NCBI GenBank assembly: GCA_044892525.1
Contig: CM097885.1
Span: 15,440,001-15,504,000 of the forward strand
Origin: Schmidtea polychroa
Lineage: Eukaryota
Length of the DNA: 64,000 nucleotides
Direction of reading: 5' to 3'
Numbering within the stretch: the stretch's first letter is position 1; each line of letters begins with the position of its first letter. A program made the position numbers and the translations under genes. The notes beneath the pieces were generated by a model. That model was not told the DNA's origin and did not search any database. It worked only from the letters and a program-made list of their open reading frames with translations. Below, one piece after another: positions 373 through 64,000 of the stretch.

Positions 373-1696
373 ACAATGAAACCCGTTAAATATCTTTTGG
401 AACTCAAATTATCATATGCCGTGCTGTCAGATCAGGGGTCAGCGAAATTTGATAAAAGCACAAAAGTATTGAGATTGGAACTTCCAATTGAACAGACTCC
501 TAATCAACCGTCGGGTGTCACTGAAAACATATCATTAAATGTTCCAAATAATTTGATAGAAGAATGCCCATCGGATAGTGAGGAAATCGGAGAACAATTG
601 CATGCTGATGCAAGTGTTCTCGGTGATGAAATTGTTGAGGATATTTCGGCAAATTCTAATGTAAATAAAGAGGGCAATGAAAATGTTGATATTGATAGAA
701 TTGGTCATACGGGTCCAGATGAATTAGAAAGGTTATTTATATTTTGTGTTTATTTCACCATTTTCATACAGATTCATTATAAAATCTTGAACAAATTTGA
801 ATTTAATAAACAATCGATTAATAATTAAATCAATTATCAAAAAAAATATTTTATCTTTTTCATCATTGATCTATTTTCATTTTCAATATTTAAGCAAATA
901 TAAAATATGAAACAAAATATTGATTACTAGCAGGAAAATAAATTGATAATCGGATTCTTTAAATTAAAAGAGCATTTCTGGTGTAATTCCTAATGGGTAT
1001 CATATGGGAACTTATAGGAGTTGGTTCGAATTGTCGTTTTCTGATGCAGGAAGGATCCGTAATACGTGATTCACTCTATAATTATATAACAGCAGATTAG
1101 TTATGATTATAATAATATAGTAAATTCGAATTTCTTCAAGGTTATATTAAAAAGTGAAACCCAAGGTTGAAATTCTCGGCATCATTAGCGGAGTTTAAGT
1201 CGTAGACGGAGTTATACCCATTCTAATGCCTTCAGCTCCTAACTTAATCATTCAAATTATTTATTTTCTTTTCAGATTATTCAAAGCAATTGTTGATACT
1301 CATTTTTCTAAAAAAAATTTTAAATAAATACTAAAAAATATCGAATTAACAATTAATTCGTTCATGCATTATTAATAATAATATTTAAATCAATAATAAT
1401 GATATATTATTAATAATATTTGAATCAATAATACTGATATATTATTAATAATATTTGAATCAATAATGCTAATATAGAATTAATAGTATTTGAATCAATA
1501 ATGCTAATATATTAATAATAATAATAATAATAATAATAAAGTGATAATTTACATATTTATATATTTTCAAATATTATTAGATAAAGATCAAAATCACTTG
1601 AAAAAGGCTGTGTCAAAAATTCGTGAATTTCTAAAAACATCGATATCTTTATTGATTCATAATAAATTTTTAATTATTATTATTATTATTATTATA

Positions 1697-4196: not shown

Positions 4197-6033
4197 CACT
4201 ATCATCATCAGGTTACCTACATTCACGAGGAATGAATAACTGTGAATAACAATATTGATAATTTATAAACAAATTAAATCTATAAATTTTTAAATTATAA
4301 ATAACAATTTTAAATAATTGTTTTCAAAAATCATTTTCAACAAACAATTATTTTTCTCTTTTAAAATATCTTTAAAAAAATATTATTTTAATTATTTTTT
4401 TAATTATTTAACATAACTATTATTCAATATACATCAACATACAAAAACTTAATTAAAACATTCAATTCACACGTATTCAGTGCATTCTGCACATTGATTT
4501 TAGGATTAAAAGTTCTTATCAGTAATGCTTCACATGTCACACACTCAAAACAATTATCTAATTTTTTGATAAAATTTTAAAATCCGGCATTCCTAATTCT
4601 CTCATACAGACTTTATTGTAATCCTTAATATTGGACACTCCTTTCGGTCGACAGTGTTCTTGAACTCGAGTACAGAGATGACGGGAAGTCTCTCCAATGT
4701 ACATACATTTTTGTATTTTGAGTGTTATACAGTTAGCATAAAGATTTCGAACAAGAAGCTGTGTATTCAATGTTGTAAGGTGGATTCTAATTCCTGTTTA
4801 TAACTTCGAGTTTGTTAGTGGATTTCAAGTGCTTCTTAGATTGTGTTCAAATCTTGGTTATGAATATCTATGTCATGGGTGTAAGGAGGGATTTTCCTAA
4901 GGAAAAATCAGAACTGCACAAATCGACAAATAAAGTACAATGTTTTAAAAGTAAAAGATGAAAAGATTTTGTTAGAATTTAAAATAAATATATTATATAC
5001 TTAGAATCAAAGTCAGAATTATTTTTTTTGAATTCGCGTTTTTATTTTAGGTTTAAGCTGTTAACCCTTTGAGAACGGGGAATTTCGTCAATTTTTTTTA
5101 ATTTTAAAATATCATTTTTTTAATTTATTTTTTAAATATTTGATCAATTTGAAATTTCTAAGTGAGTGGTATTCAATAAAACATTCAGGAACACACAATC
5201 CAGCATCACAATCCTTGCATTCATACCTTGTATCTTTTCTCTTTTGTTCTCTAATTTCTGAATGTGAATATACAAAACATCTTCTTTGGGCCGCTTTTTT
5301 TGAATTTGATGGTGGTAATAATGTATGGAAATATCTAGCAGTTAGTCTTTGATAAATTGAGGTTCTTCTTGAAGACAACTGCTTGCATTTTCTAAATTTA
5401 TTGTGATTACCATTGTGATGGCTAAAAAACAATAAATTTCTTCTTTATTGGTGTCTTTCCACTTCACTTCGTTTGTTGTTGAATTCTACACTTGGTATAT
5501 ATTTGTTTGTTCGACGATTTTTTCAATTAGATTTTCGTTGAAAAAAAGAAAAAGTAATCAAGCACATCTTCACCTAAATCTCTCTTTCACTATTCTAGTG
5601 TTCGAATTATCAAATCTAAAAATGTTGGGGGTATGCTCACTTCTTCACCATCCTCGATAAACTGATCCTTCTATTGAATTATCTTCTATTTCAGATCCAG
5701 AACTAGAATATTCAAATTCGCTATTTATTTCGATTTCTGAATCAGAATCAGCACCAGCTAAAATGTCGCTAAATTCAAAGGCCATATTTTATTTGATGCA
5801 GTTGCAGAAAAAATTGTCTTTAATATTAAAATACTAAAAACGTGATCTTTAATTTATTTAAACTCAGACGTTTATATACGTTCCCCGGATTTAGTGAAAG
5901 TCAAAAACGTATATATATGTCGGCCGGTCTCAAAGCGTTAATTAATTGACTTACAACTTGTATAATCGTATTATAAATCTTAAGTGCATTAATTGTCAAG
6001 AGTTATTTCTTTAATGTGGGTCTTCCAAATGTG

Positions 6034-6066
<33 letters not shown>

Positions 6067-7513
6067 TATTTAAAAAATCAATAATCTTATATTATAGAAA
6101 CATAAATACTAACTTTGATTTAAGGATTATGAGATACACCTTACACTATCGAAATTTAAAGTGATAGAAAAATTAAATACTACACGCAGACACAACACAT
6201 ACTAAAACACACATGCAAACTTGATATATAAAAATGCGCCACAGTAGTAGGATGTGGGCCATCCAGATCAGGAGCTCCCCGCATCACATATACCCCCTCC
6301 CCCCCCGGGAAAAAAAATTTTTTTTTTTAAAAAATAAAAGGTCAAGGTCAAGGTCATTTTTTTATTAATTTAATTTTTTGTTTTAATTAAGTGATCTGGC
6401 GGGCTCACACTTTTTTTCATCCCAAAAGTTAATGTTCTCGTTAACAGATTTTATTGACCGATACCTCATCTTAAAGCTCAGTCCAAGACCTTTCGAATGA
6501 GCTATAGGTATCTTATATATCTTTAATAGTTTTAATGTTATTAACAATTGATGACCACCATCTTTTCAAAGTTAAATTATTATTATTTGTCAAAATATTA
6601 TTAAGTGATCCAGAGGGCCCCTACTTTTTTTCATCCCAAAAATTAATGTTCTCGTTAACAGATTTTATTGACCGATACCTCATCTTAAAGCTCAGTCCAA
6701 GACCTTTCGAATGAGCTATAGGTATCTTATATATCTTTAATAGTTTTAATGTTATTAACAATTGATGACCACCATCTTTTCAAAGTTAAATTATTATTAT
6801 TTTCCAAAATATTATTAAGTGATCTGGCGGGCTCACACTTTTTTTCATCCCAAAAATTAATGTTCCCATTATCCGAATTTATTAACCGATACCTCATCTT
6901 AAAGCTCAGTCCAAGACCTTTCGAATGAGCCATAGAAGGTATCATCATCATTATTATTAACAAAGAGAATGAGTCACCCAATGACTCACCCAACGATGCC
7001 TAATATTTTTAGAATGATTACGTCATACTTTTAGAACGATGCCTAATATTTTTAGAATGATGCCTAATATTTTTAGAATGATTACGTCATACTTTTAGAA
7101 CGATGCCTAATATTTTTAGAACGATGCTAAATATTTTTAGAACGATGTCTATTATTTTTAGAATGATTACGTCATACTTTTAGAACGATGCCTAATATTT
7201 TTAGAACGATGCCAAATATTTTTAGAACGATGCCTAATATTTTTAGAACGATTACATCATACTTTTAGAACGATGCCTCTTATTTTAGAACGATGTCTAA
7301 TATTTTAGAACGATGCCTATTATTTTTAGAATGATTACGTCATATTTTTAGAACGATGCCTAGTATTTTTAGAATTAATAATTTTGTTTTAATTATCGAT
7401 GATTATATAATTCTGTTTAAATCATTGATTATATAATTCTTTTGTTTTAATTATCGAATACGTAATAATATAATTTTGTTTAAATCGTTGATTACATATT
7501 ATTATTTTCTAAG

Positions 7514-7600
<87 letters not shown>

Positions 7601-7772
7601 CATATATACACCGAGTCTATCCGACAAAATATTCTGTCCCCCTATGGGTACTGCTCACAAGGGTACTGATCACCAGGGTACTGCTCACAATCAACAACTC
7701 GCTAGGGTATTATTAGTATTATTAATAATGACTAAGATATTTTCAAAGAATTATTATTACAACTCCCAAGAA

Positions 7773-7814
<42 letters not shown>

Positions 7815-8084
7815 CATGTATTTTTAGAACGATGACTCATTCGATGACTCATACGATGACTCATAAATTATTATTATTTTCAAAAATATTATTAAGTGGT
7901 CTGGCGGGCTCCTGGTTTTCGTTTGCTCAAAACTTAATGTTCCCACCAACAGATTTTATTGATCTATAGCTCATTTTAAGGCCCAGTGCGAGATCTATCT
8001 ACTGATATATAAATATTATTATCATCATTATTATTGGGAATGATATTAACATCCGCGCGAAAGATGTTATTTTCAAAGTTTTAA

Positions 8085-8155
<71 letters not shown>

Positions 8156-8593
8156 GTTAATGAAAAATCTAAAATATGGTTTACACACACAACCCCTCAA
8201 CCATTATTATTATTATCAATATTAAAAACCTAAAATATTTTCTACACACACACATGCACAACTCATTAACCATTATTATTATCATTATTAGTGAAAACCT
8301 AAAATATTTTTTACACACACACAACCCATTAACCATTATTATTATTATTATCAATATTAAAAACCTAAAATATTTTTACACACACACATACAACTCATTA
8401 AACTTATTATTATTATTATTATTGCAAATATTAGTCAAAAACCTAAAATATTATTTACACTCACACAACTCATTAACCATTATTATTATTGCAAATATTA
8501 GTCAAAAACATAAAAACACTCATAAACCATTATTATTATCAATATTCGTGAAAACCTCAAATATTTTTTACACACATATACAACCCATTAACA

Positions 8594-8635
<42 letters not shown>

Positions 8636-11600
8636 ATTATTATTATTATTAGTGAAAAAACCTTAAATAATTTTTACATACTAAGTTATGGAGTAGAGTA
8701 TTATTATGTTTGCAGTATTCTGTGTTAGCCTTTACATGAAGTTGTCAATAAGGAGCGATAATTTTACACACACATTCTATATACACATACCTTGTTTAAC
8801 ATGGGTGTATATACTCCTAGTCTATCCGACAAAATATTCTGTCCCCCTATGGGTATTGCTCACAAGGGTACTACTCACATTCAACATATCGCAAGGGTAT
8901 ATTAATTAAGGTTAGTAAATAAAACCTATCACACATACTATTTAAACGATAAAAATCAAGACAAGAGAGGACAAGGCAAAGTTTATGCATTTAGTATTGC
9001 CAGGCCTAATGAGCAGTGATCAAATATCTGTGCCTGAAAGACACGGTGGATATTTGTTCGCGTCCACAAGGGTCGTCTGTGCCTCCCCCAAGTGGGGTCA
9101 GAAGAACCTGGGCATTATAGCTTTCCGTACGGAACATTACGCCTAGCATGGGTAGTCAACTACCAGCACATTCGAAACGTATAATTTCAAAATACATGCG
9201 TCATTGGCACTATAACCAAATTAATTAATGTTTTCACTAACACAAATATATATTTACAGAGGCCTCCCACTAGTTGGATTACAACCGCCCACCACGACGA
9301 TCAGTTTGTAAATATATATTAATTAAGGGATAAAGAGGACCCACCCAACCCTATTATATTTAATTTACAAATTTTTCTCGCTCTTCTGCTGGTATTCTAT
9401 CTCAAAATTATCATCTCCATCGGGCCATTTGGAATACATCTTGCGAATTGGACATATTTCTTAGTTTCTGATGTGGTGTCAACTATCATTGCTAAAATTT
9501 ATATTGATTTAAAAGCAATTAACTTACATTATCTAACATTTTATCATCACAGGCTTGATAAATTAGGCAACTGTTATTTGTGGTATACTTTTTCAATGTC
9601 ATTTCCCACCATAAAACACAGATACCTAAATATAATATATATATTTTAAAGAATTAATTCATGTCTTACATTAATAATAATATTCTTCAGGTAGTACTTT
9701 ACAATATCTAATTGCTAAAACATCGGTTTTTCCCATTTTTCTTGACAATCGTTGAAAGTTTACATAATTTAAGTCTGATAATTCATGTTGAAGGACACCC
9801 ACAATCAGCTAATTCATTTAAGAAATCCGGAACTATAACTCCTTTAGTGTTTCACCATTTTGTCTGGTTCATTTTTTTCTATAATTCATGTTTTAATAAG
9901 AAATTTCTAAATCCAGAACATAAGTCATTTAGTGTTTCACCATTTTGTCTGGTTCATCTTCTTCATAATCATATAATTCATTTTCTTCATTACTAAGTAA
10001 AATAATTAAAATATTGTAGTAAATTCTTTATTTACTTACTTTATGGATACTAAAACGAAAGAAATAAAGTTATATCAAAAGTATATTTAAATAAATTAAA
10101 TTTAAATAATTTAATTTAGTTATTTAAAAATATTTAAACAATTTAGTTATTTAAGAATATTTAAACATTAACATTATTATATAGTATAATTTTATATAAT
10201 ATTATAATTTTATGTACACTTATATATCCTTCATTTAATTTTTTAAATTCAAAATTTATAATGAAGATTCTTTGAATTAAAAAATATTCTGTTAGTATTT
10301 CCAGGCAGTAAACAACGAATTCAATAATTAAAATCTTAATTTTCATGTTGTTAGGGTTATGGCCAGAATTTAATCGCCATCTAATCGTTTGTTCTCAATT
10401 TCGCTCATTTTTGTTCAAAACATTCAGGTGAGTTGTTATCTGGAAAGTTTCTTTGAGCTCAGTTTTGTTAAAACACTCACGGTATTTTTGAGGGACGTGA
10501 CACTGGGAATAAATTAACAATGGGTGGTCTTGCATACATGTTGTTGGTTTGAACTGTTGATTTATTTTAGAAATATGTATATTAAAAACATTTAAGGTAT
10601 CATTCAGTAAAATAATATAGTATTTTTGAGTATTTTTAGTTGATTTATAAATAACAGTATTTTGATATATCAATAAAGACCATATACTCCTAGTTTATCC
10701 GACAAAATATTCTGTCCCCCTATGGGTATTGCTAGCAAGGGTACTGGTCACACTCAACAAGTCGCAAGGGTATATTAATCATTTAGAAATTCTTAGGTAA
10801 GATAATCAGAAATTTGTGAATATTTTAAATGTAACTTTACACTTATGTCGAGCGACTAATTTATTGGTTAACTTTTTAGACATTTAAAGCAAAAGGTAAT
10901 TTATTCATCTAATGTTCGTTACAATAGTTAATAATATGAGAAAAACATGGTCATTATTCATTGATAATTTTAAATTCTTTATCATTTAGAGTAAATTTGT
11001 TTGAGGCAAAAATAATTAAAGGAGTCATAATAGAAATATGGTTATCATTTATCCAATTAAGGGGCTTATTAGTTAGAAATATATATTATAAAGTAACAAT
11101 TATTTTCTAATTTAATTAGATGATCATTAGACGTAATATATCTTTGCGAGAAATTTAAAATGTTTGAGTAACCAAAACATGGATATTTTGTGCGATAAAT
11201 TTATGAATATTGGTTAATTTTGTTATTTTTAGTCATTTAAAATAATATTTAGCAAAGGTAATTTAGCAAAATATCATTTATCCACCCGATAACAATATTC
11301 CTTCAAAAGATTAACTGATATTCAACCTATTTAATTTCTAATTAAAATCATAAATTTCCTTCAATAAAGTTAAATTTTCTATAGTTGTCGATTTCCAACT
11401 TTTAAGTCAATATTTCTCAAGTTTTGTCACCGATATCCCCACAATGAATATCCGTCTATAACATGTTAAATAAAGGTAAATAATTTAAAGCAATAACCCT
11501 TGATATCATTCTCAATTAATTCTAAAGATTTCAGATATTTCATTGTCAAAACCAAGTAAATAAACACCTAATTGATCATTAACCCTAAAAGACTTAATAA

Positions 11601-14600
11601 AACAGTGGATAATTAATAAAAAACTGGTTCTAAAACATAAATCTAAATTACTGTGCAATGACATTCATCACAACCTAATAAACCTCTAAAACGATATAAG
11701 TTCACTGGAATTATTATTAATTCATAGCTAAATACTGACTATTTCCTTTGAAAATTTGATATTTTACCAATAAGAACATTGTCGATTTAAATAGAGATTT
11801 CAAAACATGTCCATCTTAACCGATCCCTCACCAAATATTTCTAGCATTTTAAAAACCCCCTTAAAAATCATATATTACCATCTTAACCGAACCTTCACTA
11901 AATCCAACCGACTTTAATATATCAATTCTCTTAAAATCCATGGGAAATCCTTCAAAATATGAATTTTATTTAATTGTTAAAAACATTCTTCCATTGAAAT
12001 AATTTAGTAGCTAAATTCAAAGAGTCCACTAAAAGATCAAAATAAATATTTAACCACATGTATCATCAAATACCTAACTAGAGATGATAATATCTCATTG
12101 ATTGATCATAATTCTTCATCGATTCAACTAATTATAGCCATTACAACATGATATATCTTTCAAACTAAATTTCAGTATATTTTACAATAATTTTCAAGTA
12201 GATTTCAAATATATCATCATCATGAAAAAATTAGCTGGTTTCAACTTTAGATTTTCAATATTTTAAAGTTCATCAATGTGTAAATATTCTTAGAAAAATA
12301 TATGAAAAATTATTTAGTCAAATTATCATTACAAAGTCATCATCAAAATTAATTTTTATTTAAAATTTAAAAACAAGTCAATAAAATATAGCAAATTATC
12401 AAGAAATTAATTAAATTTATCTTAGAATTAACACTAAACCTTAAATATTCTTTCAATTAACATGAAATTCACAAAAAATGTTAGTAAAATCCCGCTAAAT
12501 CTAAAAAATTACCAATGAATTTAATGCTAAATAATAACCAAAAATTTGCCTAAATAAAATCATTAAAACACACCAGTACCTTTACGACCAGTACCCTTAC
12601 GAGCAGTACCAATTGTGAACAGTACCCATAGAGGGAGAAAATATCTTGTCGGATAAACTCAGAGTATATATAATAAAACTAATTAACAATAACTCCATCA
12701 AATTGAATCAGTCAAATTAACACAAATTTTAATAAAAAATCTTATTCTAAAATGGTAAGCAGCATAAAATCGAAAGATAATTTTGATAACACAGAGATAA
12801 AATTAACAATATTATTCTCAGGTGGTAAGAATATTTTATGTTTGAGTCTGTTATCCCTCTATTATCATTGATTACTTGGTGTTTTCATATTTTTATGTAA
12901 AGTGAATGCTGGATATGTGTTCTGACACACTTTGTTTCCTTCTTAACTTTGAGAGATCATTTTGAGTGAAAAGAGTAATGTATCTTAAATTATCTATTAG
13001 AATATTTGCTTTTGAAATATTTAGTGATAAATAGTAAATATAATAATTATTATTTCAATATTAAAGTAGTTAATCAAATTTAAAATATGAATTTATCATA
13101 ATTGCTCAGTCAAATAACATTTGTTATGTATGTTTGTCATTTGTGGATTAAATACTTTATAAAAATAAATTTTTATCCCATTATTAAAATATTTTAATTC
13201 GTTAGTAACTCATATATTAGAAATAATTTTATATATCTTCATCACTTATAGCCCCCGATTTTCCAATAATCCTCCCAACAAATATTTCTTTGAAAATTTT
13301 ATTAAATATTTTTTATTAAAGTGATCATTTTTATAAATTTTATGAATTTCATGAAATAATTTTAAATAAATGCAATTAATAAATTTCCATCTTATCTACG
13401 CCACTTCTCGCTATATTTACATTTACATACCATTAATGAATAATTTAAACACTTATTTTCACTTTTTTGAATTTCATTATTAATTAATCATAGAATAATG
13501 ATGATTCTTACCACCTGAGAATAATATTGTTAATTTTATCTCTGTGTTATCAAAATTATCTTTCGATATTATGCTGCTTACCATTTTAGAATAAGATTTT
13601 TTATTAAAATTTGTGTTAATTTGACTGATTCAATTTGATGGAGTTATTGTTAATTCGTTTTATTATATATACTCTGAGTTTATCCGACAAGATATTTTCT
13701 CCCTCTATGGGTACTGTTCACAATTGGTACTGCTCGTAAAGGTACTGGTCGTAAAGGTACTGTTGTGTTTTAATGATTTTATTTAGGCAAATTTTTGGTT
13801 ATTATTTAGCATTAAATTCATTGGTAATTTTTTAGATTTAGCGGGATTTTACTAACATTTTTTGTGAATTTCATGTTAATTGAAAGAATATTTAAGGTTT
13901 AGTGTTAATTCTAAGATAAATTTAATTAATTTCTTGATAATTTGCTATATTTTATTGACTTGTTTTTAAATTTTAAATAAAAATTAATTTTGATGATGAC
14001 TTTGTAATGATAATTTGACTAAATAATTTTTCATATATTTTTCTAAGAATATTTACACATTGATGAACTTTAAAATATTGAAAATCTAAAGTTGAAACCA
14101 GCTAATTTTTTCATGATGATGATATATTTGAAATCTACTTGAAAATTATTGTAAAATATACTGAAATTTAGTTTGAAAGATATATCATGTTGTAATGGCT
14201 ATAATTTGTTGAATCGATGAAGAATTATGATCAATCAATGAGATATTATCATCTCTAGTTAGGTATTTGATGATACATGTGGTTAAATATTTATTTTGAT
14301 CTTTTAGTGGACTCTTTGAATTTAGCTACTAAATTATTTCAATGGAAGAATGTTTTTAACAATTAAATAAAATTCATATTTTGAAGGATTTCCCATGGAT
14401 TTTAAGAGAATTGATATATTAAAGTCGGTTGGATTTAGTGAAGGTTCGGTTAAGATGGTAATATATGATTTTTAAGGGGGTTTTTAAAATGCTAGAAATA
14501 TTTGGTGAGGGATCGGTTAAGGTGGACATGTTTTGAAATCTCTATTTAAATCGACAATGTTCTTATTGGTAAAATATCAAATTTTCAAAGGAAATAGTCA

Positions 14601-17600
14601 GTATTTAGCTATGAATTAATAATAATTCCAGTGAACTTATATCGTTTTAGAGGTTTATTAGGTCGTGATGAATGTTATTGCACAGTAATTTAGATTTATG
14701 TTTTAGAACAAGTTTTTATCTATTAATTATCCACGGTTTTATTAAGTCGTTTAGGGTTAATGATCAATTAGGTGTTTATTTACTTGGTTTTGACAATGAA
14801 ATATCTGAAATCTTTAGAATTAATTGAGAATGATATCAAGGGTTATTGCTTTAAATTATTTACCTTTATTTAACATGTTATAGACGGATATTCATTGTGG
14901 GGATATCGGTGACAAAACTTGAGAAATATTGACTTAAAAGTTGGAAATCGACAACTATAGAAAATTTAACTTTATTGAAGGAAATTTATGATTTTAATTA
15001 GAAATTAAATAGGTTGAATATCAGTTAATCTTTTGAAGGAATATTGTTATCGGGTGGATAAATGATATTTTGCTAAATTACCTTTGCTAAATATTATTTT
15101 AAATGACTAAAAATAACAAAATTAACCAATATTCATAAATTTATCGCACAAAATATCCATGTTTTGGTTACTCAAACATTTTAAATTTCTCGCAAAGATA
15201 TATTACGTCTAATGATCATCTAATTAAATTAGAAAATAATTGTTACTTTATAATATATATTTCTAACTAATAAGCCCCTTAATTGGATAAATGATAACCA
15301 TATTTCTATTATGACTCCTTTAATTATTTTTGCCTCAAACAAATTTACTCTAAATGATAAAGAATTTAAAATTATCAATGAATAATGACCATGTTTTTCT
15401 CATATTATTAACTATTGTAACGAACATTAGATGAATAAATTACCTTTTGCTTTAAATGTCTAAAAAGTTAACCAATAAATTAGTCGCTCGACATAAGTGT
15501 AAAGTTACATTTAAAATATTCACAAATTTCTGATTATCTTACCTAAGAATTTCTAAATGATTAATATACCCTTGCGACTTGTTGAGTGTGACCAGTACCC
15601 TTGCTAGCAATACCCATAGGGGGACAGAATATTTTGTCGGATAAACTAGGAGTATATGGTCTTTATTGATATATCAAAATACTGTTATTTATAAATCAAC
15701 TAAAAATACTCAAAAATACTATATTATTTTACTGAATGATACCTTAAATGTTTTTAATATACATATTTCTAAAATAAATCAACAGTTCAAACCAACAACA
15801 TGTATGCAAGACCACCCATTGTTAATTTATTCCCAGTGTCACGTCCCTCAAAAATACCGTGAGTGTTTTAACAAAACTGAGCTCAAAGAAACTTTCCAGA
15901 TAACAACTCACCTGAATGTTTTGAACAAAAATGAGCGAAATTGAGAACAAACGATTAGATGGCGATTAAATTCTGGCCATAACCCTAACAACATGAAAAT
16001 TAAGATTTTAATTATTGAATTCGTTGTTTACTGCCTGGAAATACTAACAGAATATTTTTTAATTCAAAGAATCTTCATTATAAATTTTGAATTTAAAAAA
16101 TTAAATGAAGGATATATAAGTGTACATAAAATTATAATATTATATAAAATTATACTATATAATAATGTTAATGTTTAAATATTCTTAAATAACTAAATTG
16201 TTTAAATATTTTTAAATAACTAAATTAAATTATTTAAATTTAATTTATTTAAATATACTTTTGATATAACTTTATTTCTTTCGTTTTAGTATCCATAAAG
16301 TAAGTAAATAAAGAATTTACTACAATATTTTAATTATTTTACTTAGTAATGAAGAAAATGAATTATATGATTATGAAGAAGATGAACCAGACAAAATGGT
16401 GAAACACTAAATGACTTATGTTCTGGATTTAGAAATTTCTTATTAAAACATGAATTATAGAAAAAAATGAACCAGACAAAATGGTGAAACACTAAAGGAG
16501 TTATAGTTCCGGATTTCTTAAATGAATTAGCTGATTGTGGGTGTCCTTCAACATGAATTATCAGACTTAAATTATGTAAACTTTCAACGATTGTCAAGAA
16601 AAATGGGAAAAACCGATGTTTTAGCAATTAGATATTGTAAAGTACTACCTGAAGAATATTATTATTAATGTAAGACATGAATTAATTCTTTAAAATATAT
16701 ATATTATATTTAGGTATCTGTGTTTTATGGTGGGAAATGACATTGAAAAAGTATACCACAAATAACAGTTGCCTAATTTATCAAGCCTGTGATGATAAAA
16801 TGTTAGATAATGTAAGTTAATTGCTTTTAAATCAATATAAATTTTAGCAATGATAGTTGACACCACATCAGAAACTAAGAAATATGTCCAATTCGCAAGA
16901 TGTATTCCAAATGGCCCGATGGAGATGATAATTTTGAGATAGAATACCAGCAGAAGAGCGAGAAAAATTTGTAAATTAAATATAATAGGGTTGGGTGGGT
17001 CCTCTTTATCCCTTAATTAATATATATTTACAAGCTGATCGTCGTGGTGGGCGGTTGTAATCCAACTAGTGGGAGGCCTCTGTAAATATATATTTGTGTT
17101 AGTGAAAACATTAATTAATTTGGTTATAGTGCCAATGACGCATGTATTTTGAAATTATACGTTTCGAATGTGCTGGTAGTTGACTACCCATGCTAGGCGT
17201 AATGTTCCGTACGGAAAGCTATAATGCCCAGGTTCTTCTGACCCCACTTGGGGGAGGCACAGACGACCCTTGTGGACGCGAACAAATATCCACCGTGTCT
17301 TTCAGGCACAGATATTTGATCACTGCTCATTAGGCCTGGCAATACTAAATGCATAAACTTTGCCTTGTCCTCTCTTGTCTTGATTTTTATCGTTTAAATA
17401 GTATGTGTGATAGGTTTTATTTACTAACCTTAATTAATATACCCTTGCGATATGTTGAATGTGAGTAGTACCCTTGTGAGCAATACCCATAGGGGGACAG
17501 AATATTTTGTCGGATAGACTAGGAGTATATACACCCATGTTAAACAAGGTATGTGTATATAGAATGTGTGTGTAAAATTATCGCTCCTTATTGACAACTT

Positions 17601-17703
17601 CATGTAAAGGCTAACACAGAATACTGCAAACATAATAATACTCTACCCCATAACTTAGTATGTAAAAATTATTTAAGGTTTTTTCACTAATAATAATAAT
17701 AAT

Positions 17704-17748
<45 letters not shown>

Positions 17749-18186
17749 TGTTAATGGGTTGTATATGTGTGTAAAAAATATTTGAGGTTTTCACGAATAT
17801 TGATAATAATAATGGTTTATGAGTGTTTTTATGTTTTTGACTAATATTTGCAATAATAATAATGGTTAATGAGTTGTGTGAGTGTAAATAATATTTTAGG
17901 TTTTTGACTAATATTTGCAATAATAATAATAATAATAAGTTTAATGAGTTGTATGTGTGTGTGTAAAAATATTTTAGGTTTTTAATATTGATAATAATAA
18001 TAATAATGGTTAATGGGTTGTGTGTGTGTAAAAAATATTTTAGGTTTTCACTAATAATGATAATAATAATGGTTAATGAGTTGTGCATGTGTGTGTGTAG
18101 AAAATATTTTAGGTTTTTAATATTGATAATAATAATAATGGTTGAGGGGTTGTGTGTGTAAACCATATTTTAGATTTTTCATTAAC

Positions 18187-18233
<47 letters not shown>

Positions 18234-18503
18234 TTAAAACTTTGAAAATAACATCTTTCGCGCGGATGTTAATATCATTCCCAATAATAATGATGATAAT
18301 AATATTTATATATCAGTAGATAGATCTCGCACTGGGCCTTAAAATGAGCTATAGATCAATAAAATCTGTTGGTGGGAACATTAAGTTTTGAGCAAACGAA
18401 AACCAGGAGCCCGCCAGACCACTTAATAATATTTTTGAAAATAATAATAATTTATGAGTCATCGTATGAGTCATCGAATGAGTCATCGTTCTAAAAATAC
18501 ATG

Positions 18504-18545
<42 letters not shown>

Positions 18546-18717
18546 TTCTTGGGAGTTGTAATAATAATTCTTTGAAAATATCTTAGTCATTATTAATAAT
18601 ACTAATAATACCCTAGCGAGTTGTTGATTGTGAGCAGTACCCTGGTGATCAGTACCCTTGTGAGCAGTACCCATAGGGGGACAGAATATTTTGTCGGATA
18701 GACTCGGTGTATATATG

Positions 18718-18768
<51 letters not shown>

Positions 18769-21700
18769 CTTAGAAAATAATAATATGTAATCAACGATTT
18801 AAACAAAATTATATTATTACGTATTCGATAATTAAAACAAAAGAATTATATAATCAATGATTTAAACAGAATTATATAATCATCGATAATTAAAACAAAA
18901 TTATTAATTCTAAAAATACTAGGCATCGTTCTAAAAATATGACGTAATCATTCTAAAAATAATAGGCATCGTTCTAAAATATTAGACATCGTTCTAAAAT
19001 AAGAGGCATCGTTCTAAAAGTATGATGTAATCGTTCTAAAAATATTAGGCATCGTTCTAAAAATATTTGGCATCGTTCTAAAAATATTAGGCATCGTTCT
19101 AAAAGTATGACGTAATCATTCTAAAAATAATAGACATCGTTCTAAAAATATTTAGCATCGTTCTAAAAATATTAGGCATCGTTCTAAAAGTATGACGTAA
19201 TCATTCTAAAAATATTAGGCATCATTCTAAAAATATTAGGCATCGTTCTAAAAGTATGACGTAATCATTCTAAAAATATTAGGCATCGTTGGGTGAGTCA
19301 TTGGGTGACTCATTCTCTTTGTTAATAATAATGATGATGATACCTTCTATCGCTCATTCGAAAGGTCTTGGACTGAGCTTTAAGATGAAGTATCGGTTAA
19401 TAAATTCGGATAATGGGAACATTAATTTTTGGGATGAAAAAAAGTGTGAGCCCGCCAGATCACTTAATAATATTTTGGAAAATAATAATAATTTAACTTT
19501 GAAAAGATGGTGGTCATCAATTGTTAATAACATTAAAACTATTAAAGATATATAAGATACCTATAGCTCATTCGAAAGGTCTTGGACTGAGCTTTAAGAT
19601 GAGGTATCGGTCAATAAAATCTGTTAACGAGAACATTAACTTTTGGGATGAAAAAAAGTGTGAGCCCGCCAGATCACTTAATTAAAACAAAAAATTAAAT
19701 TAAAAAAAAAATGACCTTGACCTTGACCTTTTATTTTTTTTAAAAAAAAAATTTTTTTCCCGGGGGGGGGGGGAGGGGGTATATGTGATGCGGGGAGCTC
19801 CTGATCTGGATGGCCCACATCCTACTACTCGCCACTGAGATACGTTTCTATAATACTTTATTTTAGACAATTTTTAAAAAACAACAAAGGATCTCTGAAA
19901 ATGATTTTAAATGTATTATTAAAGAAACGTTTAATTGTCATGAAAATGACGAAATATCATCGTAAGAATTATTTTTGAGTTAAGATTAAGTTAAATATTT
20001 ATTAGAATTTCTTATATTTGTTTCAGAAAATTTTAGAAAAATACATTTTTGCTGATTGATTTAATTATTTAATTATAATTAAAAATATATCTGACTTACA
20101 TTATCACAATAATTCCAAAATAATTATAAAATAAATTTCATAAAATTCCTAAAAATCTGAAAATTAATTTAAAATAATTTATAATACAAATGTTGACTAA
20201 AAGTAATATTTAAGAACGTGAATAATGATCCCGAATCTATGTGGATTAAAATGCAAGCTTAACATTTACTTAAAATTAAACATCTTAACGGAAAGTCATT
20301 TCTAAACTGGCTAAAATAAATTTCTAGAAAAATGAAATTTATTAAATTGGTAACAAAAATAGACAAGCCCAATAACTATTGCGTGCACAGACGTGACAAC
20401 CGTGAATGATTAGATATGTATAATTTATCGGCAAATAGATAGGATAATAATGCATGAATTTAAGACAATCTGCTTTGTGTAAATTAACAAAAGGAAAATA
20501 CATTTATTTATTCAGAATTGTTTGAGTGGCTGTAATTAGGGTGCTTTTGTATTTAGGTTATTGAAAATAACATCGAAACTGACAATGAGCAAAAGAATTA
20601 TGAAACTAATCAAATAGAAACAGGAGAATGCGAAGAATGCATAGAAATTCATGATATAAAGAGCAACTTAATAAGTAAATTTTATAATAACTGATTTCTT
20701 TGTATAATTTTGGAATTCTATTAATTATTTCTAAATTTTTATATTCTCTATCCTCAATCTTTCAGATTATATATTAACATTTTTATTTCTATTTTACCAA
20801 TTAATTTATTGTCTAAAAGAATGGAAATAAAGGAAATTGTAAATGAAAATAGATCAAAGGTGAATAAGAACAAAATTATGAATTTTGAATCACTTTATTT
20901 ATGAGCAAACTGCAGTTCATAATTTACTACACCAATTACATATCACATACGATCACATATTACATACAATCACATATCCAACACAATTACATATCCCGTA
21001 CATTTATATATCCCATACATTTACATATCCCATACAATTACATCTCCCATACAAATACATATTCCATAAAATTACATATCCCATAAAATTACATCCCATA
21101 TAATTACATATCCCATACAATTACATATCCCATACAAATACATATCTCATAAAATTACATATCCCATAAAATTACATATCCCATAAAATTACATATACCA
21201 TAAAATTACATATCCCATACAATTACATATCCAACACAATTACATATCCCATACAATTGCATATCCCATACAATCACATATCCCATACAATTACATATCC
21301 AACACAATTACATATCCCATACAATTACATATCCCATACAATTGCATATCCCATACAATTGCATATCCAACACAATTACATATCCCATACAATTACATAT
21401 CCAACACAATTACATATCCAACAAAAAATCCATTATTAACTATAAATATTATAGTAAATATAAAGAAAAATAATATCAGTAGAATATTGCAGAAAATTCT
21501 AAAACATGTATTTGACAAGATATGAGAATTTATGCCTTATTCTGCTACATAACCTTTATCCTTGTAATAAATTATTACATACGCATTATTGCATTCACAC
21601 TAATTGCTGTGTAAACAATATTATTTTAATAACTTGTTATTGTTTTAGTATTCACGTTTTTATTGTAGATTTTTCATTTATAAGCAAATAGAAAAAACTT

Positions 21701-24001
21701 AATGACTTCTGTAATTTGTAAAATTCGATTTTTATACATTAATTGTTTTATCATTATTTATTATTATTTTTGTTTATTATTTATTATTTTGTTTATTAAA
21801 GTGATAATTTAATCCTTTTACTGCGAATAATGTATTTAATGAAAAAATTTCGACTATTAGATAGTTCTTGTCAATCTCCTGGAATTTAGCAATCTTCTTT
21901 CCGAACATACATTTAAATATAATATAATATAATGATATACTTTCTTTTTCTGAATTTTAAAAATTTTATTTAAAATTAAAATTTAATAAATATCGCCATT
22001 CGTACATTTTTTTCACTATATTTCGATAGCATCACTATCATCATCAGGTTACCTACATTCGCGACGGATGAATTGATAATATATAAACAAATTATAAAAT
22101 CTATATATTTTAAATTATAAATACAAATTTTAAACAATTATTTTTTAAAAATAATTTTCAATAATCAATTATATTTAAACTTTTAAAATTATTTAAAAAT
22201 ATTATTTTAATTATTTTTTTAATTATTTAACATAACTATTATTCAATATACATCAACATACAAAAACTTAATTAAAAACATTCAACACACAGTATTCACT
22301 GCATTCTGCACATTGATTTTAGGATTAAAAGTTATTATCAGTAATGCTTCACATATCACACGCTCAAAACAATTATCAAAATTTTTCATAAGATTTTAAA
22401 ATCAGACATTCCTAATGATTCCTATATGATCCTTAATATTGGACACTCCCTTCGGTTGACAGTGTTCTTGAACTCGAGTACAGAGATGACGGGAAGTCTC
22501 TCCAATGTATGTGGCATTACACCCATTACATGTAAATTGATAAACGAGATCCGAACACAATCCAACCGACGTTTGAGATTTACTAACAAACATACTAAGT
22601 AATTTGCACGATTTTGAAACAATTCTATAATTCAATGTACCCAACTGTTTACCTATCTTTCTTTTGAAATCTTTATATCCTTCAGAATACGGCAATACCA
22701 TCGTATATTTTGGCTCATCTTGTTTGTTAGTATCAATTCATATTCACTACATCATTCGACATATCAGTCAATTTACATTCATTAATACTACGATCCTTAG
22801 CATTATTCATACATTTATCAACAGTCTCATTCAACGTTAACAATAAAAACCGTTTTGAGTAGCCATTCTTCACCAGTAATTCAACTAATTTATCTACACT
22901 TTTTACTGAATTTTTAAAAGTGGAAGATAAGCACCATGATCGATAAACCAATCCTTTCACCATGTTTCTTTTATATTTAAATTCACTAAAACTCTCTGGG
23001 TAGTATAGAGGCCGGTATCTGTTGGTTTTCTGTAAATTTCTGTCTCATATTGTTCATCTTTACGTTTAATTAACAAGTCAAGAAATGCTATGGATGAATC
23101 CTTCTCAGTTTCACATGTGAATTTAATGTTCTTATGTAATCCATTCATGTATTGCAAAAAAGGTTTCATATGTTCCTTATTTTTAAATATCAGAAAAACT
23201 AAATATCAGAAAAAAATCTAAACATGCCAAAAATATTGACGCCATTGTTGGTGCTAAGGGTGAACCCATAGCCAGTTCATCAATTTGTTCATACCATTCT
23301 TTATTAAAAAGAAAATTAACTTTGGAAGTTGCAAACTCTTAAAGCTTCCTAAATGCATTTCCATCACACATATTATGCGCATTAATATTTTCATTCCATA
23401 ATTCACAACATAAATCGATTGTTTCTTTCAACGGGACATTAGTAAATATACATCAAACGAAACCATATACTTATTAACATTATTTTTATTCAATTGTCCT
23501 ATACATGATGCAAATTCAAAACTATCCTTACATTCAAACTCAGATTTTATTAAGGGTTTTAATAATCCATCCAAATACTTCGCTATTTTATACTGAGCTG
23601 TTCTGACCATAGATAAAACAGGTCTCATGGAAACTCCGTCTTTATGCACTTTTGGAAGTCCGTATAATTTAGCTGGCTGTTAACCTTTTGCATGAACTAA
23701 TTTTGCTATATCTTCATCATCTTAACTAAATCACGCAACATAGTATTCAAAATCACTTCATACTTTAGAATTGGCAATCTCCCTTTTTTTCGAAACTTAT
23801 CGATTTTTGAAAATTGAGAACCTGAGAGTGCTTTATTTAATTTATTCACATAAACATCATGGTCCAAAATTACAAATCCATATCCTTTATCAAATATTTT
23901 TATTAATAAATTTTTGACCCTAAATTTATTTTATATTTAATATTGTTGGAACTTAGTAAAAGTGGTATAATAGCGAGAGTGGCATAGAAGCAAGACTTGA
24001 C

Positions 24002-27032: not shown

Positions 27033-27617
27033 CTATTGTTTTGATTTCAAAAGGTTAATATCATCGATTAAATAGTTTTCAAGAGTCTTAAAAGCTTTCT
27101 CAAGATCATTGTTGATAACTATTAAATCAAATATTCCAGGAGTTTTGGAGAATTCCATGTCCACTTTAGATCTCAATAATCTAGCTTGTAATTTTTCCTC
27201 CGTTTCGGTTCCTCGATCTCGTAATCTTTTTTCTAAAACTTCATAACTTGGTGGACTGATGAAAACAAATCGAGCGTTGAGATCACTCTTTTTCACAGCT
27301 TTCACACCTTCCATTTCAATGTCTAAAACACAAATCTTTCCGGAACTTTGGACCTTTTTAACGGCATCTAGACTTGTTCCGTATATATTTCCAGCAAATT
27401 CTGCATGTTCTAAAAATTTTCCTTCTGCTATCAATTGTTTCATCGTATCATGAGGTACAAAATGATAATCTTTTCCATCTTGCTCCCCGGGACGTGGGCC
27501 TCTTGTTGTATGTGAAACACTAAATGCAAAGCAATTTTCATGCTTCTCCATTAACTTTGTTAATAAAGTGCTTTTACCACATCCGGATGGACCATTTAAA
27601 ACTAATGGGCGGATCAT
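27033..27617 (-). CDS. GUK1: Guanylate kinase, copy 1
   Basis: 194 aa with P-loop GPSGCGKS, GMP-binding SVSHTTRGPRPGEQDGKDYHF, EHAEFAGNIYGT and LEKRLRDRGTE. A TTTAG acceptor 12 nt upstream of the ATG suggests an upstream exon. Confidence 0.95.
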   Translation of the reverse strand: MIRPLVLNGPSGCGKSTLLTKLMEKHENCFAFSVSHTTRGPRPGEQDGKDYHFVPHDTMKQLIAEGKFLEHAEFAGNIYGTSLDAVKKVQSSGKICVLDIEMEGVKAVKKSDLNARFVFISPPSYEVLEKRLRDRGTETEEKLQARLLRSKVDMEFSKTPGIFDLIVINNDLEKAFKTLENYLIDDINLLKSKQ

Positions 27618-30217
27618 TCTCGTTAGAATCTAAAAATGAATAAAACATAAATTTTTTATCATTAATCTTCGCATTTTAGTTTAGAAAATAAAACAACTTT
27701 TTTAATTGTAACTTTCTTATCAAAAATGAAACAATGAAAATAAAGTCTATTATTTCATACAATTAAATGAGTACAATTATGTATAATTAAATTCTTAAAA
27801 AATAAATTTTATTAGTCAAAATTTTAGCTAATCATATATCAGATATTTGTGAAAGTGCATTAGTTGTTTTTTATCACGGAATGTTATGTAATAAAACAAA
27901 TGACTTTATTTAACCGTAATTTACAATATTTATATAAAGTTTCATTATTTGAAAATAAAAGTTATTGAATTTATACTGAAATAGGTTCAAATCTTAAATA
28001 ATTTATAATTAGTTGAAATACTTTTTTAAAAATCTATTTTTATAGACTTGTCATATCAAAGAACAAAATAGGTAGTCATTTATTCTTAAAGATCAAAAAG
28101 AAAGCATGACTTATTTGAATTTAAATATATAAAAAAGAAACTAACAAACACAAATTTCTATGAATAAGGTATCTAAAATTATTTTCTGTATAGCTGATCT
28201 AAAATTCTTTAAAATTATTTTTCTGACCCCAGGTCCATTTGGATATTAAAGTATTAATTACTTAAAAACTGATTTTTTATGATTTTTGTTTGAATTCGTC
28301 AGTATCATAACATTTAAAAGTGCATAAAGTTCAATTAAAATACAAATAAAACATAACAAGTGCTGGGTTTATGACAAGGAAGTTAATTTATACAAAATAC
28401 AGAAAAACGACTACTGGTGGGTTACGAGTAGAGAAACATTCTATGTATGTTCTTGTAAACGTCCGCCATGTCGCTACATAACTCTTCATAACTATCAAAT
28501 TTACCGCTAAATACCTGTCTCAAGTGATGTTGCCGTGCAATTTAATGAGTGGCGTCAGCAAAAGATGAGTAAAACTTTTGAATTTAATTATAACTGCTTA
28601 TAAAAATGTTATTTAATCTAATTTCTGTATATTTTAGATGTCAAAATAAAAGAATTAAGTGATAAAATACGTTGCCAAATTGTTGATAGTCATAATAATG
28701 GTCATTTCCTTAGTACTCAAGCACAACAAGTTCGTGTTGCTCGGTCAATAATCTTTTCTAGCGAGCCTCACAACCCGGGATTCTTTAATTGGTCTGCATC
28801 GGGCGTGCTCTTTGCGGCCATGGTTACACCTGCTAGTAGGCTGTGACTGATTACTAGCCAGCTCGGTTGGAAATATCTCAAGGAATGAAATTGGAGCTAC
28901 GTTGGAGCTTAATTGGATGGTGTGTTCATCGTTGTTGTTTTGATGTCTGCCAGCATCCAGCTGGCGGATCAGATACCTCAGGGTTTAAATCTCGACGTCA
29001 TTCTACGTAACTGGCCTTTGCAGATACGAAAAAGTCTGCATCTTTTTTTTCGCATTGCCAAGGGCGGGAACTGTTGGCTTCCATCTTCCGACATTTATTC
29101 TTCAACCTCTGAATTTTCGTGAGCTCCTTTGTATCTTTCAGTTCGAGGTGAAAACTATCGGTGATTCGTTCAATTAAATCAAATTTATTCAATTTAAATG
29201 CATGATCATTGATCATCCTTTGGCAAATAAATGTTTACAAAAAATGATTTCTCGAACCCCGCAAAATACTCGTTCAAATCAAAGTTTGCGTCATGTCTAT
29301 GATATTTTTGGTCGCGATCAGATTCCGTCTCATCGACTTTACCCATCATGCAGAACATAATACCTATTGGTATCATTCATTTTCATTAAGCAAATTCATA
29401 ACCTTGATTAAAACACACCATCTTATTTAAATAATAATCATAAGAGTAAAATAAATTTATTGGTGACCCAAAGGCTCAATGTTAACAATTTTTCATTGTT
29501 AGAAATTACTACCTCTGTCCAAAAATGATAGTCCAGTTGCATTTTAGTCTTCTTCCCAAAATGATTGTCAATAGATAATATAAAAAATTGAACGGTTTTG
29601 TAAAACCTTTTACAGTAAAAACACATTAAATAATTTTATTTTATTGATTGAACAAATAACAAAACTGCATTTTAAGTATCACTGTTACGTATAAAAGAAA
29701 TTACGATTTAAAGTCAAACTGGACTATCATTTTTGGATAAACACGGTTTCATTATAAATATTGAATTTGGATCTTTAAAGAATTTTTCATATATATTTAA
29801 AATGATGATTTATACAAAAAATGTTTTTAAATAGTTTAGAAATTTTTTGATATTAATAATGTTTAAAAAATTTTATTATTTTTAAATAGAATTTAATTGT
29901 GGTTCAAAATTAATTTAATTTAAAAATTTTAAAAATTTATAAAATGATAATAATATCTTTTTAAAATTTTTATATTTATTAAAATGTTTTTCTGAATTTG
30001 ATAATGATTAAAATATCTAAATTATATTTTAAAATATATTAATTTTATTCTTAATTATATTCAAAATTGTTTAAAAATCATATTAAAAGTAATTTTCATT
30101 TTATTGAAATGTTATGTTAATTTTTGTTTGTTTGAATGTTATGTTTATCTGTCCTGTAACAAATTCAAGCTTTAAACATTGATAATAATGTTGTAATTAA
30201 ATGTTTTTGCAATTTAA

Positions 30218-30450: not shown

Positions 30451-30773
30451 TTAAAATATTTAGTTTCAGATAAAAATATTCTTTAACAAATTTATTACTC
30501 CTTAGTTTATGTATTATTTTTACGAGTTAATTGTTAGTATTGAATAATTTTTATTATTAATTTAACTACATAAATTATTTTAATTTTAAATTAATTTTAA
30601 TATTAAATTAATTTAAATTTTATTTAAATAATTATTTAAAATTTTTATTACTTGATTTATTTATTTTGTAAGGAAAATTAAATAATTCAAATTCAAAATA
30701 ATAAAATAAAATATAATTTGTTCAAATAATATTAATTTATTATTATATATTTTCAATTCTAAATTTAAATAAA

Positions 30774-31358
30774 ATGATTCGTCCATTAGTTTTAAACGGC
30801 CCGTCTGGAACTGGTAAAAGCACTTTATTGAAAATGTTAATGGGAAAACATGAAAATTGCTTTGCATTTAGCGTATCTCACACAACAAGGGTGCCACGCC
30901 TTGGTGAACAAGATGGAAAAGATTACCACTTTGTGTCTCGCGATAAGATGAAACAATTGATAGAAGAAGGAAAATTTTTAGAACATGCAGAATTTGCTGG
31001 AAATATATACGGAACAAGTCTAGATGCAGTTAGAAATGTCCAGAGTTCCGGAAAGATTTGTGTTTTAGACATTGAAATGGAAGGCGTGAAAGCTGTGAAA
31101 AAGAGTGATCTCAACGCTCGATTTGTTTTCATCAGTCCACCAAGTTATGAAGTTTTAGAAAAAAGATTACGAAAACGGGGAACTGAGACGGAAGAGAAAT
31201 TACAAGCTAGATTATTGAGATCTAAAGTGGACATGGAATTCTCCAAGACTCCAGGAATATTTGATTTAATATTCATTAATGATGACCTTGAAATTGCTTT
31301 TAAAATTATTGAAGATTTTTTAATTGATGATATTAATCTTTTGAAATCGGAGCAATAG
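30774..31358 (+). CDS. GUK1: Guanylate kinase, copy 2
   Basis: Intact 194-aa ORF with GPSGTGKS and SHTTRVPRLGE; paralog of copy 1. Confidence 0.92.
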   Translation: MIRPLVLNGPSGTGKSTLLKMLMGKHENCFAFSVSHTTRVPRLGEQDGKDYHFVSRDKMKQLIEEGKFLEHAEFAGNIYGTSLDAVRNVQSSGKICVLDIEMEGVKAVKKSDLNARFVFISPPSYEVLEKRLRKRGTETEEKLQARLLRSKVDMEFSKTPGIFDLIFINDDLEIAFKIIEDFLIDDINLLKSEQ

Positions 31359-33385: not shown

Positions 33386-60889
<27,504 letters not shown>

Positions 60890-62553: not shown

Positions 62554-64000
62554 GGGCGCGCCGAGCTGTTAGGCCGCTTGAGTGCAAAATAATTTCCCGC
62601 CGCTCTTCATCCTTGCTGCAAAAAGTTTCTATAATCCAAAATAAAAATAACATTTAATTAAAGTAAAAATTAAACTAACTACGGAAGAACACACATATCA
62701 CATACAATAGTTTATGAAAATTATAGTTTATTAATGACAAAACAGATAAGTTTAGGAAAGTTATAGTTTAGTACACACAAACAATAGAAAGTTTATGAAA
62801 TTAATAGTTTACTACTCATACAAAAGAGGCTTTTCTCTCCTTGTTCAAAGCAAATTGTGAAATTAAGTCATGCATATCTAAATTATCCCGGATTTCATGT
62901 TCTATTGAAATTATTGATATATTACTTAAACGTTCCTGGAGCATAGTTGATCGTAAATAATTTTTAATTATCTTCAATTTTGAAAACGATCTTTCACCTG
63001 TTGCAACTGAGATTGGTAATGTTAATAGAATTCTGGTCACAATAAATATATTTGGGAATGTTGCCTGAAGATCATTTTGTAAAATATATAATAATATAGA
63101 TTGAGGTTTAATATCTTCTTTTAAAAATACCTTTATAGTTTTTATCTCTTCGAATAAATCAATTCCATTAATATCGGACTCATTTCTTTGTTCGTCAGTT
63201 AATTTCAAATGTAAATCTTTGCAGCTTTTCAAAAGTATTTCTTCTGTTATATCTTTAATATTATACATAAATCCAAATATATCATTAGACGATTTTAACG
63301 CTTCGAATCTTGTTGTAATTGATACTAATGCTTGGTCGATAATGCAGAAATAAAATTTAATTTTAAAATTTGTTTTTGGATCTAATATTGGTTCATCCTT
63401 GCCTTCATAATCAAAATTTGTTGTTTTTCTTCTTACTCTTAAACTTGAAACTTCTGGAAATTTAGGTTCTACGTGTAATTTTTCGGCTAATTCACTAGAT
63501 GATGTAAGCATTTTTTCAAATCCATTATCATTACGACAATTTTTAAAAAACTCTATTAAATCATCTAACGCGGTAACGCTTCTATTGATATCGGTGTTTG
63601 GGTTCTGTAATATTTGACTAACAACATTAATTTTCATTAAAATTTCATGCCAAATAACAATGGAACATAAATAACGATAACTTGATATTTTTAGTGAAAG
63701 AGAATTTGCCACATGTCTGGTTTTAAAGTCAATCAATTGATCATTTGATATTTCAAGAAGAGATTTATAAATTTGTTCAGTATGATACCTTAGTGGTTGT
63801 ATGGCATCAATTCTACTTGACCACCTTGTATCGCTCAGGGGTTTTAATTTTAAATTCGGTAAATATTTTACTATTATCGCCCATCTTTTGACGCCGAAAA
63901 AACTACATATATTTCTTGTACTAAATCAAAAAATGTTACTGTTTCATGTGAAATATGTGCCGCATCATTAACAACTAAATTTAAGCTATGAGCAGAACAT
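62551..64000 (-). mobile_element. hAT transposon (ZMYM1-like type), 3' half; continues past the window
   Basis: Terminus CAGGGGCGCGCC lies next to (TA)n. ORF 62816-63736 has the hATC motif LTLPISVATGERSFSKLKIIKNYLRSTMLQERL. Upstream are CSAHSLNLVV and LSDTRWSSR, with a frameshift near 63890. Confidence 0.9.

Follow-up and report, generated by a model that had tools for sequence, protein, structure and literature searches.

A gene-less palindrome with Polinton ends in the genome of Schmidtea polychroa, a candidate helper-dependent satellite

A 64,000-bp stretch of the Schmidtea polychroa genome (assembly GCA_044892525.1, contig CM097885.1, positions 15,440,001 to 15,504,000 of the forward strand; this whole stretch is hereafter called the window) contains at 6243-19829 an element of 13,587 bp that is palindromic over 95% of its length, carries the ends of a Polinton/Maverick and in which no gene was detected. 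The question raised by this locus is how such an element can be multiplied and how its two arms come to be so alike. The explanation favoured here, to which we give a probability of roughly 0.7, is a helper-dependent satellite: a gene-less palindrome with the ends of a coding Polinton resident in the same genome, which would be fold-back copied by the protein-primed polymerase (pPolB) of that helper and inserted by the helper integrase.

The palindrome and its insertion site

Self-BLAST together with a global alignment confirmed the two inverted arms and the 671-bp spacer that a first, sequence-only reading of the window had noticed. The arms are 98.6% identical over 6239 aligned columns and differ by 19 substitutions and six insertions or deletions (one 214-bp unit, (ATT)n stretches of 36, 24 and 3 bp, 4 bp in a C-run and one of 3 bp), which agrees with the scattered single-base changes, (ATT)n lengths and 214-bp unit described there. 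The termini and the target-site duplication (TSD) were likewise as reported; AGTAGTAG...CTACTACT are 5'-AG...CT-3' ends with a short tandem (AGT)n, as in Polintons/Mavericks, and the TSD CGCCAC is exact on both sides and has, with 6 bp, the Polinton/Maverick length. The arms of 6.3-6.6 kb fall outside the span of about 0.05-1.5 kb of Polinton/Maverick terminal inverted repeats (TIRs).

When analysing the flanks, both were found to belong to one dispersed repeat (40 scored of 3174 candidates, 86-89% identity), and in four of the five paralogues fetched the left flank runs directly into the right flank. The empty site with a single CGCCAC that the first reading implied was found, in paralogous form, as L104. 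The host gene said to resume in frame after the element was not recovered, the reconstructed empty site having no open frame, with stops throughout all six frames, and the flanks being the dispersed repeat. The nearest host-like frame, a PIH1 CS domain at 373-828 (+), ends well upstream of the element. At 5061-5941 there is an internally deleted piggyBac-like element with TTAA at both ends, 10 of 12 terminal bases matching and a C-terminal zinc finger (PF13842), and this may be the source of the supposed host gene. Contigs of read run X1, which may itself be the source of the assembly, agree exactly with the sequence at both junctions but reach only 27 letters into the element (31 needed for bridging), and among the read contigs of four runs no informative empty-site joint was found.

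The features of the element and of its target are, in window coordinates:

6072..6242 (+), left part of the dispersed host repeat that is the insertion target
6237..6242 (+), left TSD CGCCAC, present as a single copy in the paralogous empty site L104
6243..12832 (+), left arm, 6590 bp
6243..6300 (+), Polinton terminus AGTAGTAG..., predicted pPolB origin and integrase end
6243..8165 (+), region matching non-coding DNA of the coding Polinton
6386-6935, within the preceding region, 214-bp units of the terminal-repeat region
6992-7374, within the same region, 21-bp array
7603..7700 (+), ~90-bp motif, copy 1; the motif sits just inside both ends of coding copies
8808..8900 (+), ~90-bp motif, copy 2
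8900..12600, arm "cargo", where only the ~90-bp motif matches the coding Polinton, without coding signal
10682..10773 (+), ~90-bp motif, copy 3
11590..11672, one-arm exchange tract, the arms holding different alleles each found in other copies
11811..12479, non-coding blocks ~70% similar to the palindromic family L139 and to DNA upstream of pPolB in the palindrome L066
12601..12692 (-), ~90-bp motif, copy 4, pointing outward
12833..13503, loop, 671 bp; the family has two loop types ~77% alike, with no conserved reading frame
13504..19829 (-), right arm, 6326 bp, inverted copy of the left arm
anchored at 13681, 15643, 17516 and 18700, four mirror copies of the ~90-bp motif in the right arm
19830..19835 (+), right TSD CGCCAC
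19830..20351 (+), right part of the dispersed host repeat

Family, coding relatives and gene content

The assembly comprises 781 Mb with four very large contigs, and the window is AT-rich. A 22-base terminus pattern gave 1939 genome matches (963 forward and 976 reverse) against 0 for the reversed control pattern, so that the structure is well above chance, and marks for the arm interior (a 20-mer, 820+793 matches) and the inner end of the arm (an 18-mer, 730+719 matches) are similarly numerous. Inverted pairs 0.6-0.8 kb apart account for 62 of the first 100 inner-end matches listed (hand count), and extrapolation from these 100 suggests roughly 450 palindromes with intact loops, which at ~13.5 kb each would amount to close to 6 Mb, 0.8% of the genome. 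Palindromes that are long and nearly perfect tend to be unstable, and their abundance in this genome is therefore surprising.

Copies with other 6-bp TSDs, as would follow from the first reading, were found. Twenty-eight other cargo-bearing copies with both ends located (taken from the best matches and the start of contig C1, not at random) showed exact 6-bp TSDs in 26 cases, one mismatch in one and two in another, and the hexamers all differ except for one site present twice. The first 25 Mb of C1 yielded 41 terminus pairs, of which 15 have one inverted pair of arm marks, 8 the capsid mark only, 2 both, 5 one arm mark, 3 complex patterns and 8 none of these marks, and two of three unmarked 13-15-kb pairs that were fetched are also palindromes. 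Palindromic copies are mostly 12.3-15.6 kb long as compared with 16.1-17.1 kb for coding copies, a difference that is suggestive only with regard to a packaging limit; there are also one-sided copies of 7.7-9.1 kb whose TSDs are exact, perhaps the result of later deletion. The loop type conflicts with the arm lineage in some copies (C1:174.27M and C1:45.46M versus C2:154.62M and C1:205.06M), the arms of C1:174.27M being ~2% from those of C2:154.62M and yet combined with the other loop type, which suggests recombination between family members. At L087/L088 (G000:C1:13994720-14010943) a coding Polinton with its own TSD is inserted in the loop of a family palindrome.

The autonomous-type Polinton with the same termini, whose existence the first reading had left to be searched for, is represented by five coding copies of 16.1-17.1 kb with exact TSDs and terminal repeats of ~0.7-1.8 kb. 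Annotation of one of the five revealed an rve integrase with chromodomain, an A32-type ATPase and a pPolB, the latter assigned by its 59% identity to a PF03175-positive protein (hmmscan gave no name). A protein of 407 aa gave a model with a predicted local distance difference test score (pLDDT) of 92.7, a single-sequence model of the same protein reaching only pLDDT 35, and matches the major capsid proteins of iridovirus, PBCV-1 and mavirus with E to 3e-16; as modelled it is a double-jelly-roll capsid protein. Across these genes the five copies are 97-99% identical, and an 18-mer of the capsid gene has 579 genome matches. Sequence searches of PDB and PHROGs gave nothing informative for this annotation. 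A TBP-like protein is encoded at L082:5578-6042 in a coding Polinton (PF00352, E 2.8e-15), with homologous frames in L079, L083, L085, L088 and L062, and a frame of a second Polinton family shares 54% identity with it.

With these copies the element shares only non-coding DNA. Its first 57 bases are identical, ungapped, at 45-51 positions to the 10 ends of the five coding copies, and of the 7261 bases that arm and loop comprise together, 2200 match the helper, namely 6243-8165 and three more copies of the ~90-bp motif. Nine palindromic copies were counted and contain this motif 5-11 times each, coding copies 2-3 times, and a promoter or packaging role for it would be a guess. The idea that it is the end of a nested Tc1/mariner element was rejected, as the motif lies inside both ends of the coding Polinton; a lone diverged copy is found outside the element at 46030-46160 (-).

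None of nine proteins of the coding copy was found in the element by tblastn (best E=0.36), all nine matching another Polinton family as control. A capsid profile of 112 proteins gave a best E of 0.26, the ATPase gave no match, and a Pfam scan of the six read-through frames yielded nothing above cut-off and one sub-cut-off match to a domain of unknown function (DUF). The protease, covered by the Pfam scan only, was not matched either, and with that proviso the reported lack of pPolB, integrase, ATPase, protease and capsid frames holds. Since the read-through scan is blunt, the same method having missed a zinc finger that was detected when scanned alone, a short or spliced gene may still be present. 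Eight loops have no shared frame, and a KH-like stretch in the loop was discarded as a gene because other copies do not keep it. No synonymous excess was seen (fractions 0.21-0.26 in six frames with 357 variants; best p=0.04 of 312 tests), the conserved blocks at 11.8-12.5 kb contain no open frame common to both families, and Rfam gave no match in the element.

About 5 kb of each half of the element finds no counterpart in the coding Polinton. Another palindromic family shows 63-71% similarity to the inner arm and the loop, which also have non-coding blocks in common with the DNA upstream of pPolB in a pPolB-carrying palindrome, and from this likeness the cargo looks at least partly Polinton-derived and not host-captured. 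A host origin of the captured DNA that the first reading proposed to be duplicated in both arms gains no support from this, part of this DNA resembling non-coding DNA of other Polinton-type palindromes. Its proposal of a non-coding Polinton derivative is strengthened by the shared termini, the 6-bp TSDs of individual copies and the coding family with the same ends, and mobilisation of the element in trans by helper proteins is likely.

Likeness of the arms and its possible causes

Arms were compared in 17 copies (34 arms, 136 between-copy comparisons); nine of 17 locus pairs, in which the terminus or inner-end motif was not located, and two short copies were left out of the arm count. Within a copy the arms differ by a median of 0.17% (0-3.1%) and between copies by 3.37%, and the nearest arm is the copy's own partner for 31 of the 34, the three exceptions involving two near-identical sister copies. 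Variants private to a copy, scored in nine copies, are present in both arms in 120 cases and in one arm in 24. As arms are nearest to their own partner, one arm was likely re-copied from the other before insertion, and the arms would thus be reset at or before that event, a likeness that probably preserves a trace of the way in which Polintons replicate. One old copy has arms 3.1% apart with changes that are mostly private, and one-arm insertions and deletions up to kilobase size persist, indicating that arms drift once integrated.

Footprints of folding back can be seen in related palindromes. Among 91 scored pPolB matches five inverted pairs were found, all of them palindromes with other Polinton ends; in four the arms are 6.1-7.7 kb with >99% identity, and two have as their loop a 1.2-1.7-kb member of the family of the window element, with mirrored flanks. 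The five shortest of the 41 terminus pairs (546, 1077, 1078, 6161 and 6183 bp) are also loops within mirrored arms of 4-7 kb. All seven loop-forming family members have a mirrored flank and no direct TSD. Since an integrase would leave a direct repeat, mirrored flanks point to the replacement of one side by a copy of the opposite one, and these loops are likely a fold-back footprint; we infer that the replacement ran through the inverted repeats of the inner element. Adenovirus genomes are reportedly generated in a similar way, by recombination between inverted repeats.

The pPolB palindromes (L065-L078, L141-L146) have a pPolB frame in each arm, show no frame for capsid or integrase in their interior and occur under at least two other types of Polinton terminus, and several have the same inner junction, ending CAGTAG and followed by a nested mini-element. 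At about 139.675-139.70 Mb of G000:C1 (L071-L073) a 12.6-kb pPolB palindrome is nested in one arm only of a family member.

Put together, the helper-dependent satellite would exist for a time as an extrachromosomal linear copy, replicated from its ends by strand displacement. The displaced strand would anneal to a stem of ~6.5 kb with a 0.7-kb loop, in which one arm could be rebuilt from, or corrected against, the other so that variants reach both. The helper integrase would then insert the duplex, giving the 6-bp TSD, after which the arms would drift as long terminal repeats (LTRs) do and could gain one-arm patches from sister copies. The palindromic form itself likely originated through an internal inverted repeat that allowed one end to be overwritten with a copy of the opposite end.

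Several observations weigh against this reading. Every step of the mechanism is deduced from sequence, and the loop of the window element is not a nested TIR element, so that the origin of its own palindrome is argued by analogy. The copy-back extension of TIRs put forward in the first reading gains support as regards fold-back on Polinton replicons in this genome, seen in the mirrored-flank loops, and arms evolving in concert, and for the window element stands by that analogy. A loop-ward gradient of arm differences, hinted at in nine copies, was dropped after the count in 17, where private differences from end to loop are 2.1, 0.9, 2.2, 2.2, 2.3 and 2.2 per kb (one old copy contributing 89 of 226 differences). 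Several copies have one-arm tracts of alleles common to sister copies and the terminal 22 bases differ in 8 of the 41 terminus pairs (hand count), which means that homogenisation is incomplete or has been overwritten by ectopic conversion; judged from such tracts, exchange between copies occurs, before or after integration. Finally, none of the helper frames listed was recognised as a protease.

The same tracts, showing that recombination or conversion acts on the elements, and the absence of the gradient expected of fold-back re-synthesis speak for a different cause, in which the arms of a Polinton-ended passenger are kept alike mainly by chromosomal gene conversion after insertion, as are the arms of Y-chromosome palindromes. 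We consider this unlikely, because the old copy has been left with largely private differences between its arms and kilobase one-arm insertions and deletions persist, because the tracts seen lower the likeness of the arms rather than raise it, and because the mirrored-flank loops require a copy-back event. It seems improbable to us that the polymerase has no part and that the Polinton integrase needs no other enzyme to move a giant foldback element, similar to a miniature inverted-repeat transposable element (MITE), in the form of intact double-stranded DNA. An element with only cis-elements and 6-bp TSDs, and two sister copies on C3 near-identical throughout, would suit such movement, but it would pass on arm differences, which should grow along lineages, whereas copies ~3.4% apart have arms only ~0.2% apart and private variants are found in both arms.

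A service to the host, as a source of hairpin or small RNA against the coding Polinton or as a decoy titrating its proteins, is very improbable. Inward and outward copies of the helper motif would yield double-stranded RNA if transcribed, and the motif is enriched in the palindromes; against this, none of the 2200 bases matching the helper is coding, and selfish spread is enough to account for the copy number, with no benefit to the host. The chance that fold-back chimeras among the long reads produced the palindrome during assembly is close to nil, even though no read contig spans the entire element. A chimera predicts identical arms, no TSD and mirrored flanks, and here the flanks are unrelated and the TSD is direct; moreover, the arm differences are alleles present in other copies, the arm-loop junction is common to hundreds of sites and a paralogous empty site exists.

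The helper-dependent satellite, which we prefer to these alternatives, can be extended to a bolder and rather doubtful proposition, that Polintons here routinely spawn copy-back defective genomes, motif-amplified, capsid-sized and particle-borne, which by now are inherited as satellites in numbers similar to those of the helper. Fold-back would then be nucleated by a small element with TIRs lying within a linear replicon, and one end would thereby be duplicated. If true, the family would be a genomic record of defective-interfering dynamics in an animal DNA virus whose replication is known from a model only.

Neighbouring sequences and comparison with known systems

Elsewhere in the window three uninterrupted guanylate-kinase frames are found at 27033-27629 (-), 30717-31358 (+) and 43229-43870 (+), with PF00625 for the first two; the second and third lie within a 1.08-kb duplicate of 97.9% identity, and the first is 87% alike. 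Broken frames at 4254-4701 and 22072-24000, without Pfam match, resemble, by their motifs, Penelope-type reverse transcriptase and GIY-YIG endonuclease. The window further contains a FLYWCH frame at 57988-58677 (+), a hAT dimerisation domain at 62816-63925 (-), a reverse-transcriptase fragment at 38308-38961 (+) and, at 20933-21419, a 17-bp minisatellite of 29 copies with strong C skew.

For the comparison with known systems, excerpts of the publications cited below and of PMC6431247, PMC3185507 and PMC13027316 were used. In these, vertebrate Mavericks have (AGT)2//(ACT)2 ends, a 6-bp TSD, a length of 12.7-24.6 kb and inverted repeats of 46-1447 bp (PMC8097293, Barreat and Katzourakis 2021), and inverted repeats of 100-1500 bp are given in PMC10748475. 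The window element resembles Polintons/Mavericks in its ends, its TSD, a length within this range and ends common to a resident coding family, but is without a core gene and has arms four times the published TIR maximum in the excerpts of both sources. The excerpted preprint 10.64898/2026.07.28.741278 describes terminal palindromes of 52 nt, a structure unlike that of the window element. No description of whole-palindrome Polinton satellites was found in the literature covered, which did not extend to the 2006 paper of Kapitonov and Jurka, Repbase, primary papers on adenovirus or supplements.

Judged by its sequence, without genes and with arms too long, the element is not an autonomous Polinton. 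It has those features of a non-autonomous Polinton derivative that can be tested in a genome, that is, termini of a coding family, dispersed insertions with distinct TSDs and an empty site. Such derivatives are a known kind and were reportedly described by Kapitonov and Jurka in 2006. They are likewise gene-less with helper ends retained and 6-bp TSDs; the window element differs in being near helper length and 95% palindromic, with no simple internal deletion. Laboratory helper-dependent protein-primed linear replicons share the duplication of one end around an internal inverted repeat but do not integrate, whereas here a natural chromosomal family of several hundred copies is found.

Foldback transposons and MITEs (Drosophila FB/Galileo, Tetris), which move by cut-and-paste transposases, resemble the element in that their inverted arms are long and contain tandem repeats, their loop is short and their spread is non-autonomous. 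The window element differs in that it has Polinton ends and 6-bp TSDs and that its arms seem to be reset in the manner of LTRs, and its ends are not those of a DDE cut-and-paste superfamily, matching a Polinton that encodes pPolB and capsid. Copy-back or snap-back defective viral genomes are self-complementary, with a duplicated origin, lost genes and amplified cis motifs, and all four are seen in the element, which appears to be a self-complementary genome with arms derived from one another. As regards derivation from the helper by truncation, the match to the helper is limited to the 2200 bases given above and the inner part resembles other Polinton-type palindromes. In contrast to defective viral genomes the element is inherited in host chromosomes, where annotation pipelines needing core genes would overlook it and where its arms give every insertion its own clock. 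The published model of Polinton replication, a racket-shaped, single-stranded and protein-primed intermediate derived from sequence (excerpts of PMC4196379), is turned by this family into predictions that can be tested, namely stems of ~6.5 kb, arms reset on insertion as in LTRs and mirrored-flank loops that would mark the place of fold-back.

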